Source: Candidatus Daviesbacteria bacterium
Lineage (GTDB): Bacteria; Patescibacteriota; Microgenomatia; Daviesbacterales; UBA10151
Direction: 5' to 3'
Assembly (NCBI GenBank): GCA_016187035.1
Contig: JACPKL010000007.1
Location: 1 to 43,477 of the forward strand
DNA: 43,477 nucleotides
Positions 7,350 to 20,890 of this stretch are shown piece by piece. The notes under the pieces were generated by a model. It saw only the letters and a program-made list of their open reading frames with translations, was not told the DNA's origin and did no database searches. Every line of letters begins with the position of its first letter. The first letter of the stretch is position 1. A program made the position numbers and the translations under genes.

Positions 7350-7472
7350 TCTCTCTTTCATCCCGACTGTACGGTCGCTGCAGGAGTTTCACCTGCTCAT
7401 CCACGTACCAGACGGTACGCGGTCGTGGAGTTTACCACCGATTAGGATTTTCACCCAAACCCCGAAAGAACA
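7350..7472 (-). ncRNA. FMN riboswitch (RFN element)
   Basis: Minus strand reads TTCTTTCGGGGTTTGGGTGAAAATCCTAATCGGTGGTAAACTCCACGACC...CAGGTGAAACTCCTGCAGCGACCGTACAGTCGGGATGAAAGAGAG, matching RFN hallmarks; directly upstream of the riboflavin operon. Confidence 0.95.
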
Positions 7473-10300: not shown

Positions 10301-11604
10301 CCTAATATTCTATCACGTAATTTTCTGTGATAGGAAATGGCAAATCTGTGGGATTCATCACGGAGTTTTTGCAGCAGCCTTAAAGATAAACTGCTCTTGG
10401 GTAATTTGATAATTTTACCTTCGGCAGGATAAAGCCACTCCCTTTTTTTGGCAAGACCAAAAACAGGAATTTGAAAATTGAAAATTGAAAATTGAAAATT
10501 TACTACTCTAGCCTGTCCCCTACCCCCATCTACTATTATTAGATCAGGGAATTGCCATTCTGTATGTTTTAACCTTCTTTTTATCATTTCTCTATGCATT
10601 CCTACATCATCTGGCCTGCCAGAAATTCTTATTTTAAATTTTCTATACTGGGATTTATCAATCTCACCAGCAATTATCACTACCATTGATCCTACCGCAT
10701 CTTTTCCGCCAATATTAGATATATCATAACCTTCAATTCTTCCAGGTAATTTATCTAAATTTAAATCTTTTTGTAGCTGCTTTAAAGCTAATTTATTTTC
10801 TTCTTCTAAAAAGTTAGGATTTTCTAAGTAAGCCTGGGCCCTATTAGTTTGAGTAAGATAAGAAATTCCATCTAACATTTTTTTTACTTGAGCAGCTTTT
10901 TCAAACTGCTGAGTCTTTGATAACTCCATCATTTCTTTTGATAATCCTGATACCAACTCTTCCTTTTTCCCTTCTAAGAATTTAGAGAATCTTTTGATAA
11001 TCTTGCTATATTCTTCTTTATTAATCATTCCTGTACACAAACCAGGGCACAATCCTAAATGATAATAGAAACAAGCTCTATGTTTAGCCTGCCCCGTACC
11101 ATACGATACTGGAGCCTGCAACCTCGAAGGTTGCAGCGTGAATTTGGGAGGGTTGCTACACCAGGGAAAAACCCTTCTAAGTTGCTTCAGAGTATTCCTT
11201 ACTGTCCTGGATGAAGGAAAAGGGCCAAAAAACTTTTTAACTGTTTTTAAATCTTTTTTCCTGATCGTGACTACTTTAGGAAACTGTTCATTTGATATAC
11301 CAATATAAAGAAAGTCTTTATCATCAGTTAATCTGATATTAAAAGGCGGAAGGTGTTTTTTAATCAAGTTAGCCTCCAGAATTAGGGCCTCTAATTCTGA
11401 TTCAGTAATATAGGTTTCAACTGAGGATATATTGGATACTAAGGCAGCAGTTCTACCATCAACATTACGGTTAAAATATGAGGAGACACGGTGATATAAA
11501 TTAATAGCTTTTCCAACATACAAAATATCTTCTTGGCTGCTTTTAAATATATAAACCCCACTTTTTTTGGGTAATTTTTCCTTGTTTAAAAAGGAAGGAA
11601 TCAT
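10297..11604 (-). CDS. uvrC: Excinuclease ABC subunit C (short form, no obvious C-terminal HhH)
   Basis: GIY-YIG region (GVYIF, LYVGKA), RIEGYDISN, PDLIIVDGGRGQ and RDESHRFA motifs. Confidence 0.95.
   Translation of the reverse strand: MIPSFLNKEKLPKKSGVYIFKSSQEDILYVGKAINLYHRVSSYFNRNVDGRTAALVSNISSVETYITESELEALILEANLIKKHLPPFNIRLTDDKDFLYIGISNEQFPKVVTIRKKDLKTVKKFFGPFPSSRTVRNTLKQLRRVFPWCSNPPKFTLQPSRLQAPVSYGTGQAKHRACFYYHLGLCPGLCTGMINKEEYSKIIKRFSKFLEGKKEELVSGLSKEMMELSKTQQFEKAAQVKKMLDGISYLTQTNRAQAYLENPNFLEEENKLALKQLQKDLNLDKLPGRIEGYDISNIGGKDAVGSMVVIIAGEIDKSQYRKFKIRISGRPDDVGMHREMIKRRLKHTEWQFPDLIIVDGGRGQARVVNFQFSIFNFQIPVFGLAKKREWLYPAEGKIIKLPKSSLSLRLLQKLRDESHRFAISYHRKLRDRILG
10471..10500. repeat. Heptamer tandem repeat (TTGAAAA)x4 inside uvrC
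   Basis: Four perfect 7-bp units; encodes NFQFSIFNFQ. Confidence 0.9.
11082..11144. repeat. Composite 63-nt family B element in frame within uvrC, containing a nested 27-nt insert
   Basis: GTTTAGCCTG-[CCCCGTACCATACGATACTGGAGCCTG]-CAACCTCGAAGGTTGCAGCGTGAATT; AGCCTG duplicated at 11086-11091 and 11113-11118. Confidence 0.85.
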
Positions 11605-13610: not shown

Positions 13611-14264
13611 ATGCCAGGAAGAATAATTCCGCTAGTAACTGGAGAGTTTTATCATATTTATAATCGAGGCAGTGAAAAAAGGGATATTTTTACTCAATCA
13701 AGGGATTATCGCAGATTTCAAAAAACCTTTTACTACTACCAATTCTTAGGTCCTAAACCAAGTTTCTCTAAATTTTCAAAACCCGACTTGAATTCTTTCA
13801 AAGCTAATCCTGATAAGAAAATTGTTGATGTGATATGTTACGCTCTTATGCCAAACCATTTCCATTTCCTGCTTCGCCAGCTTAAAGAAAATGGAATTTC
13901 AATATTTTTGAGTCAACTTTCAAATAGCTACACAAAATACTTCAATACTAAATATAAAAGAGTAGGACCTCTCCTTCAGGGAGCATTCAAAGCAGTCCTT
14001 ATAGAATCAGAGGAACAACTAATACACTTATCCCGTTATATCCACCTTAATCCAGTAGTTTCTGGGCTGACTAAAAATTTAGGTAGTTACCATTGGTCTT
14101 CTTATACAGAATATATGAGTGGTCAGACATTATACTGCTCTCCGGAAGAAATCCTTAGTCTTTATCCAACTGTCAAAAATTATCAGAAATTTGTAGAAGC
14201 TCAAATAGAGTATGGTACTACTTTGGAAATACTAAAACATAGAATAATAGCTGAAGATATCTAA
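13611..14264 (+). mobile_element. REP-associated tyrosine transposase (RAYT/TnpA-REP-like, HUH Y1 family), copy 2
   Basis: YHIYNRG, YALMPNHFHFLL (HUH), YTKYFN, RYIHLNP and YHWSSY motifs; family B palindromes on both sides. Confidence 0.9.
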
Positions 14265-14269
14265 AATTC

Positions 14270-14330
14270 GTGCGTCAACCTCGAAGGCCTTCGGCCGTGA
14301 GCCTCAGGCCGAATCGGTTGCAGGCTAAAT
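14270..14330. repeat. Family B element downstream of RAYT-2, interrupted by a 30-nt hairpin
   Basis: GCGTCAACCTCGAAGG-[CCTTCGGCCGTGAGCCTCAGGCCGAATCGG]-TTGCAGGCTAAAT. Confidence 0.85.
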
Positions 14331-20852: not shown

Positions 20853-20890
20853 TTGTAGCCTGCAACCTCGAAGGTTGCAGCGTAAACTAA
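20853..20890. repeat. REP-like family B element between uvrB and the pilin-like gene
   Basis: TTGTAGC-CTGCAACC-TCGAA-GGTTGCAG-CGTAAACTAA. Confidence 0.9.

Follow-up and report, generated by a model that had tools for sequence, protein, structure and literature searches.

A REP unit and a nested 20-nt hairpin unit in a variable uvrC loop of Candidatus Daviesbacteria

We analysed a uvrC gene of Candidatus Daviesbacteria in which two selfish palindromic units probably entered one spot of the coding sequence in succession, both now being translated, a reading to which we give a probability of roughly three in four. The gene lies in a 43,477-nt stretch (the window; contig JACPKL010000007.1 of assembly GCA_016187035.1, positions 1–43,477 of the forward strand) from a single metagenome-assembled genome (MAG), a reduced genome represented by a 1.04-Mb, 85%-complete assembly (G000; labels of this form are our own handles). 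The outer unit belongs to family B, a set of repetitive extragenic palindromes (REPs), and the inner one is a 20-nt member of a mini-hairpin family that we call H.

Anatomy and orthologue states of the uvrC insertion

The plus strand at 11082–11144 reads GTTTAGCCTG (11082–11091), CCCCGTACCATACGATACTGGAGCCTG (27 nt, 11092–11118) and then CAACCTCGAAGGTTGCAGCGTGAAT, or CAACCTCGAAGGTTGCAGCGTGAATT onward. Because the canonical 35-nt family B unit, GTTTAGCCTGCAACCTCGAAGGTTGCAGCGTAAAC, recurs intact elsewhere in the genome (about 12 copies genome-wide), the uvrC copy can be recognized as split after its foot, as an original prediction from the bare sequence had proposed; its core, CTGCAACCTCGAAGGTTGCAG, is repeated within the window, where none would be expected by chance. 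The same prediction had seen a 6-bp target duplication, AGCCTG, at 11086–91 and 11113–18. Those positions hold, and the repeat is one base longer (7 bp, AGCCTGC, 11086–92 and 11113–19). Likewise, the insert does add 27 nt as proposed, made up not of one 27-nt element but of a 20-nt unique unit (11093–11112) and a 7-nt duplication. The chance that the end of the insert would match the preceding bases over 7 nt is ~6e-5. The inner unit itself, CCCGTACCATACGATACTGG, is translated as PVSYGTG, and the assembly contains the 27-mer once, with no further copy at up to 6 mismatches.

The loop that holds these units, between FPWC and CFYYH, varies from 6 to 41 residues across 108 orthologues, and a comparison of alleles for empty, single and double states, which the original prediction had put forward as a check, recovers all three. 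REP-free loops have 6–13 residues (SGGRKA, SGTGNKRA in L002, SNPPKFRA in L038 and many others). REP-only loops occur in 13 proteins and have 16–19 residues, typically 19 of the SNPPKFSLQPSRLQAKHRG type, for example SSPPKFSLQPSRLQAKHRG (P0011) and NNPPKFTQQPSRLQAKQRG (P0110). The 28-residue loop of the window, SNPPKFTLQPSRLQA[PVSYGTGQA]KHRA, is the only one with both units (1/108). The DNA of L036 has a flawless 35-nt REP, GTTTAGCTTGCAACCTTCGAGGTTGCAAGCTAAAC, at the position and in the frame seen in the window, and that of L037 has a near-canonical one. From the comparison of these two with REP-free loops and with the window, it follows that 33 nt came with the REP and 27 nt with the inner unit. 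The extra sequence relative to orthologues is therefore 60 nt (20 codons); the 63-nt composite proposed earlier is indeed in frame and includes about 3 native nucleotides. Because the REP-free, REP-only and REP plus H states all exist, the window can be read as the product of two successive in-frame insertions, 33 nt and then 27 nt. The proposed succession is thus supported by DNA from L036, L037 and L038. Neither a unique inner element nor a uniform loop length was found: alongside the varying loops, a 20-nt hairpin 18/20 identical to the inner element occurs in 24/96 family genomes.

On these sequence comparisons, the insertion of the REP is shown by the two orthologue states, and that of H by REP-only orthologues, which lack the inner 20-nt unit, together with intact REP copies in the genome. 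The history that we propose has a family B unit entering the loop between the first and second cysteines of a four-cysteine motif, adding 11 codons (an FTLQPSRLQAK-type peptide); its mobilizer would be the HUH/Y1 single-strand transposase encoded 2 kb away, a REP-associated tyrosine transposase (RAYT) flanked by the same REP. H would then have entered the REP at the junction of foot and core stem, duplicating AGCCTGC and adding nine codons (PVSYGTGQA), presumably through a staggered 7-nt cut and fill-in. Selection would have retained only whole-codon, stop-free events. Such tolerance of the loop would also account for the at least four other palindrome families found there in relatives. HUH/Y1 transposition normally leaves no target duplication. 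On this background, and on the enrichment of flanking heptamers around H described below, we infer that the two units arrived by different mechanisms; of the corresponding earlier claim, the successive insertion of different repeat families stands as a result and the difference in mechanism stays at that level.

Some loops record other events. The 41-residue loop of P0020 holds a family B REP followed in tandem by a different long palindrome. In P0035 (L041, 2307–2390), a perfect 12-nt tandem duplication (TACAGTAGAGCC twice, peptide YSRAYSRA) is another path of loop growth at this site. The loop of L038 (3441–3490; AAA TTT AGG GCC encoding KFRA), the shortest of the SNPPK type, is coded by a perfect 12-nt palindrome, CCTAAATTTAGG. 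With the REP foot TTTAG still in place, it may be a site that was once occupied and lost its REP secondarily between TAG repeats. We also considered YGTGQAKHRA as a native loop homologous to SGTGNKRA of L002, and rejected this, as REP-only orthologues run directly from LQA to KHR.

The protein around the loop is intact. It has the GIY-YIG, UVR and RNase H-like endonuclease domains of UvrC and the four-cysteine motif, with catalytic residues conserved; Y18, Y29, R39, E77, N89, C149, C178, C186 and C190 are invariant columns, and the four cysteines show no variation across 107 UvrC sequences. By analogy with E. coli UvrC, these cysteines should be the ligands of a [4Fe-4S] cluster. The insert, placed just before the cysteine cluster in the original prediction, is indeed near it but lies inside the motif, between Cys149 (codon 11158–60) and Cys178 (codon 11071–73). 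An AlphaFold2 model built from 107 sequences has a mean pLDDT of 84.5, with values below 50 for residues 156–172, which are the inserted ones, so that the inserted peptide is predicted to be disordered; solved structures span only UvrC residues 10–98 and 271–433. Across the clade, these proteins (399–455 residues) lack the C-terminal HhH2 domain that is present in UvrC of E. coli and Thermotoga.

Table 1. Positions of the uvrC gene, the parts of the nested insertion and the nearby RAYT locus in the window.
Feature	Position	Strand	Details
uvrC-like gene, 435 aa	10297..11604	-	ORF; Pfam GIY-YIG, UVR and UvrC RNase H-like domains
Coding stretch from Cys149 to Cys178, hypervariable loop, 28 residues	11071..11160	-	Orthologue alignment
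Left foot of family B REP, GTTTAGCCTGC	11082..11092	+	Last 7 nt (11086-11092, AGCCTGC) are duplication copy 1
Inner 20-nt unit, CCCGTACCATACGATACTGG, H family member	11093..11112	+	18/20 to consensus CCCGTACCATACGGTACAGG
Duplication copy 2, AGCCTGC (7 bp)	11113..11119	+	Single AGCCTGC in canonical REP copies
REP family B core hairpin, CTGCAACC-TCGA-AGGTTGCAG, with diverged right foot CGTGAATT	11116..11144	+	Same core in further copies of the genome
Family B REP immediately upstream of RAYT start codon	13569..13603	+	
RAYT-like Y1 transposase gene	13611..14264	+	2 kb from uvrC; Pfam Y1_Tnp, NCBIfam REP_Tyr_transpos
Family B REP immediately downstream of RAYT stop codon	14265..14330	+	Interrupted by a 30-nt hairpin, CCTTCGGCCGTGAGCCTCAGGCCGAATCGG, at 14288-14317

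The REP pool and the uvrC loop

Family B has the properties of a REP, being a short (20–40 nt) imperfect palindrome in multiple dispersed copies. At no more than one core mismatch, G000 holds 11 copies and the reversed-pattern control none; across the family, the core is present in 14/96 genomes at 1–11 copies each (control 0). Its ends depart from the GTAG (or CGTC) tetranucleotide of such elements: the consensus foot reads GTTTAG(C), and the copy at 20853 alone reads GTAG. The Y1 (HUH) gene has a family B copy on either side, a layout also seen in L040, and family B copies stand beside the RAYT in L038 as well. In G006, G009 and G049, pairs of cores lie ~700 nt apart, a spacing that would suit the flanks of a RAYT-sized gene; the pair in G006 is on the uvrC contig (C22), ~2 kb from uvrC. 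Gene order from the RAYT through a transglutaminase-like gene, uvrC, a holin-like gene and SecG to SBP is kept in relatives. The outer element is in this sense a RAYT-associated REP, which the RAYT would be predicted to bind and cleave.

The REP downstream of the RAYT carries, in its 3′ arm, a hairpin that differs from H and has GG on each side (Table 1). With the uvrC copy, this makes REP hairpins recurrent insertion targets.

The uvrC loop of Daviesbacteria is in turn a sink for at least four mutually unrelated palindrome families besides the REP. One, AGCTTCCAATCCCGG...CCGGGATTGGAAAGCT, occupies the loop in L003 and L013 and has at least four copies in G001; another codes for KYRFxN...IQFRK, its hairpin being weak in the sole copy read as DNA (L005); a third comprises GTTTTT...AAAAC palindromes. 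The fourth is the peptide pattern S(A/T)SQGxALRA, known from protein only in nine sequences, which by back-translation we conjecture to be palindromic as well (TCTCAAGG/CCTTGAGA). On a UvrC tree computed after removal of the loop, loop types are scattered, and well-supported sister pairs carry entirely different ones. The REP-bearing set requires 9 changes on this tree, its monophyly is rejected (approximately unbiased test, p = 0.023), and the window is nested among the REP-only sequences P0002, P0003 and P0008.

The REP in uvrC follows the REP variant of its own genome. In L040, the closest relative (75% identity), the uvrC REP stem is TACACCT/AGGTGTA, as against TGCAACCT/AGGTTGCA in the window, with three pairs fully compensated, and the L040 variant ACACC/GGTGT (CCACCTCTAAGGTGT) also stands at both ends of its RAYT. 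In a set of six uvrC REPs, pairing extends to 79% of cells, compared with at most 44% for slid partners, and 6/16 pairs are changed on both sides. Taken together, these data indicate that the uvrC REP is re-inserted or converted from the local pool and is no passive relic, the match with the RAYT-flanking variant indicating ongoing exchange between the REP pool and coding sequence.

The H hairpin family and its mode of arrival

The inner unit belongs to a family with the consensus CCCGTACC-ATAC-GGTACAGG or variants, in degenerate form CCYGTACC-NNNN-GGTACRGG. The 20-mer at up to three mismatches gave 32 matches in the 24 family genomes that carry it, and 1 in the control. The degenerate pattern matched exactly in 14/401 class genomes (5/30 in the family and 9/371 elsewhere; controls 0), and the exact consensus occurs on 18 contigs among 185,579 species genomes, where ~1 is expected. 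By title, nearly all of these contigs come from the candidate phyla radiation (CPR): Daviesbacteria, Curtissbacteria, Woykebacteria, Saccharibacteria and Peregrinibacteria. Five of the 18 bear the title 'uncultured Gammaproteobacteria', which we suspect to be a mislabel, one of them having its hit at the same position as in G107 of the Daviesbacteria family. One C.A (or G.U) mismatch persists in common forms of H regardless of which strand is transcribed, and because the mismatch is kept in both orientations, H would descend from one DNA sequence and not from convergent RNA design.

Folding of the window's copy bears on its description as a hairpin in the original prediction, which holds for RNA and is not supported for DNA. 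As single-stranded DNA it folds poorly (z = 0.04 on the plus strand and −1.15 on the minus strand), and we rejected a stable DNA hairpin; as sense-strand RNA it gives a hairpin of 10 bp that includes two G.U pairs and one bulge (−16.5 kcal/mol, z = −3.8, 0/200 shuffles), because two arm positions become G.U pairs in RNA.

Copies of H lie in 23S rRNA, RNase P RNA, cobalamin, flavin mononucleotide (FMN) and S-adenosylmethionine riboswitches, group I introns, terminators and elements of another repeat, family A. One other coding sequence carries it, a protein gene of G007 in which it reads PVPNGTG in the same frame as PVSYGTG in uvrC. In the window, the FMN riboswitch upstream of ribE has an H-like cap at 7405–7418 (GTACC-AGAC-GGTAC), and in G095 (L065) this riboswitch is capped by a fuller H copy. 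RNase P RNA of genus g79 (L076–L092) varies from 258 to 367 nt within the genus, and sister species have wholly different hairpins at two of its helix tips, at P3 (H-like in some) and at a second peripheral hairpin; G093 (L078) has H twice, once instead of the common CCGAG-ATCATG-CTCGG. Family A, with dozens of copies in G000, has the form GTCATTGCGAGG-[variable hairpin]-CGTGGCAATCTTCC...GGAAGATTCCTCG-[variable hairpin]-CGGAATGAC, each copy with a different inner hairpin (for example, C6:42840-42960, C6:6830-6940 and C5:113450-113530).

Two origins for the inner unit were tried and rejected. Derivation from family A (C6 42853 and C6 6924, apex GTACCATACGGTAC) fails because the apex is one more copy of H and no specific donor. 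The sole metagenome match to the inner 19-mer is in L043 (Ga0208902_1039220, 77–99), a contig of higher GC content with an identical 23-mer, TGCCCCGTACCATACGATACTGG, in which both departures of the window copy from the H consensus recur. The match adjoins an ISNCY transposase, and we considered H as a solo end of an insertion sequence (IS); the inverted repeats of that element lie at ~122–152 and 1435–1465, with the match ~23 nt outside, and its ends differ from the termini of H. H does have terminal inverted repeats, its 8-nt arms (CCYGTACC and GGTACRGG) forming the whole unit, and at 20 nt it falls outside the definition of miniature inverted-repeat transposable elements (50–500 bp, with a cognate transposase). 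Among the 8-mers CCYGTACC/GGTACRGG listed in G000, no obvious IS with such termini appeared, gene-bracketing pairs not having been searched for systematically.

Flanking heptamers around H are identical at 6 or more of 7 positions in 7/58 distinct copies, with 0.3 expected from offset controls; they include AGCCTGC (uvrC), GCGCGGT/ACGCGGT and several GCGAAGC/GCTTCGC. An eighth case is L045, where GCTTGC abuts H on both sides and which stands low in the heptamer table because its repeat is offset by one base. The uvrC copy is the cleanest case, because other family B copies and orthologous REPs have a single AGCCTGC; the uvrC REP is also the only empty and filled orthologous pair for H, a search for an empty site of the L045 copy in the congeneric G042 having matched only the neighbouring tRNA. 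This enrichment suggests staggered-cut insertion. Extending it, we tentatively entertain, at odds somewhat below even, that H is a 20-nt mobile DNA unit, below the size of any described bacterial transposable element, which spreads across CPR bacteria, inserts with a 7-bp duplication into permissive protein loops and into other hairpins, namely REPs and helix tips in riboswitches, rRNA and RNase P RNA, and may overwrite resident hairpins. If true, this would call for an enzyme, of the host or of the element, able to integrate hairpin oligonucleotides.

For the uvrC event itself we favour a staggered cut of ~7 nt, with a serious rival, possible but on the unlikely side, in which the 20-mer was copied in from another H locus by template switching or short-patch gene conversion and the 7-nt repeat is the microhomology of the switch back. 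The helix tips of RNase P RNA in genus g79, where H and other hairpins are swapped with no duplication, speak for such copying, as do the majority of H copies, which lack flanking repeats, and the varying repeat length at nested hairpins (7 bp in uvrC, 2 bp at 14288–14317). On the other hand, the assembly holds no donor with AGCCTGC beside H, and the 20-nt boundaries stay constant beside unrelated 6–7-nt repeats (AGCCTGC, GCGCGGT and GCTTGC), as from a fixed stagger. Several observations weigh against the history that we propose. Flanking repeats are missing from about 85% of H copies. G093 has H in its RNase P RNA in place of an ancestral hairpin, with no duplication, and for this case copy-choice or gene conversion is a better fit than transposition. 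GCGAAGC/GCTTCGC may itself be repetitive, so that part of the heptamer enrichment could be context. An enzyme for H was not found, nor was a donor for the exact 20-mer in the 85%-complete assembly. The RAYT scores are marginal, one just over its cut-off (Pfam Y1_Tnp, 23.9 bits against 23) and one under it (NCBIfam REP_Tyr_transpos, 51.6 bits against 80). Finally, a search of 5.8 billion proteins returned no UvrC with more than 75% identity to the window protein, and because of this the order and date of the insertions rest on distant relatives.

The loop hairpins might also be kept because they are useful, either through an mRNA structure that tunes the translation or stability of uvrC or through a peptide that modulates the Fe–S region. 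The compensatory changes that maintain the uvrC REP hairpin, the presence of some palindrome in the loop of more than half of the orthologues and a published excess of REPs in UvrABCD, RecBCD and PolI genes, with speculated functional effects (PMC3733652), agree with this. We nevertheless consider it improbable: re-insertion or conversion from a genome's own REP pool explains the compensation equally well, the peptide is predicted to be disordered, and at least five unrelated sequence families, together with many REP-free loops in sister taxa, imply that no particular sequence or length is required. Still less probable is an ancestral composite of REP and H, with H later deleted between the 7-bp repeats in the relatives that now have the REP alone. 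Such direct repeats suit slippage deletion, and the KFRA loop of L038 offers a possible parallel in REP loss between TAG repeats; yet H occurs in 1/108 orthologues, the window is nested among three REP-only sequences, and all other family B copies of the genome have a single AGCCTGC. Least credible of all is that the 27 nt arose artificially in assembly or binning, as a single MAG and a repeat-rich region might lead one to fear. The frame is kept, the 7-bp junctions are clean, the H family appears in many independent assemblies, and repeat artefacts usually collapse or chimerize sequence rather than add a foreign 20-mer.

Relation to known elements and significance

REPs that lie in frame in repair genes have been published before: intragenic copies have been listed, with an excess in UvrABCD, RecBCD and PolI genes (Di Nocera et al. 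2013, PMC3733652), and the uvrC case extends this known phenomenon. The outer unit resembles REP/RAYT (REPtron) systems (Nunvar 2010, PMC2817692; Bertels & Rainey 2011, PMC3116915) in being a multicopy short palindrome with a repeat-flanked Y1 transposase gene, in the same neighbourhood in three relatives, and with occasional whole-codon intragenic copies. It differs in its very low copy number (1–11 per genome), its GTTTAG foot in place of a GTAG or CGTC tag and its CPR host, as well as in the re-occupation of one protein loop by several families and the hit on a REP by a second hairpin that duplicates 7 bp. REPs are also known as landing sites for IS elements (PMC3733652; ISPpu9 in PMC8450116). 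In both cases a palindromic repeat receives a second mobile element; here, the invader is a 20-nt hairpin and no transposase-encoding IS.

Rickettsia palindromic elements (RPEs; Ogata et al. 2000, as cited in PMC3733652 and PMC1779305) are likewise selfish palindromes of a reduced genome, which occupy RNA genes as well as, in frame, housekeeping genes, where surface loops tolerate them. They are about 100–150 bp long, alphaproteobacterial and of unrelated sequence, whereas the units here measure 33–35 nt and 20 nt and are nested; with no homology to RPE-1 to RPE-8, a smaller size and a host other than Rickettsia, the resemblance is one of behaviour alone. Yeast mitochondrial GC clusters are hairpins with 2–3-nt flanking repeats that merge and shuffle (PMC4478555). 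H shares with them a size of tens of nucleotides, short direct repeats (at some H copies) resembling target duplications, the absence of an encoded enzyme and the merging and shuffling of hairpins, and differs in being bacterial rather than organellar, 20 nt long and flanked by repeats of ~7 nt.

The literature that we searched gave no account of such elements in CPR bacteria. New here are this setting, the re-use by many families of one loop between two of the four conserved cysteines of UvrC, the genome-specific tracking of the REP variant and the nested 20-nt unit with its 7-bp duplication. Running from REP-free through REP to REP plus H, the series lets the order of two nested insertions be read directly, which is rarely possible. 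H, nearly restricted to CPR bacteria, common to unrelated structured RNAs and enriched for 7-nt flanking repeats, offers a testable handle on how mini-hairpins move. Selfish palindromes repeatedly colonize essential genes of reduced CPR genomes, the copies that we see being those in loops that absorb them, and such inserts make the protein loops and RNA helices of CPR bacteria longer and more diverse, so they should be recognized in annotation and in the alignments on which phylogenies are built.

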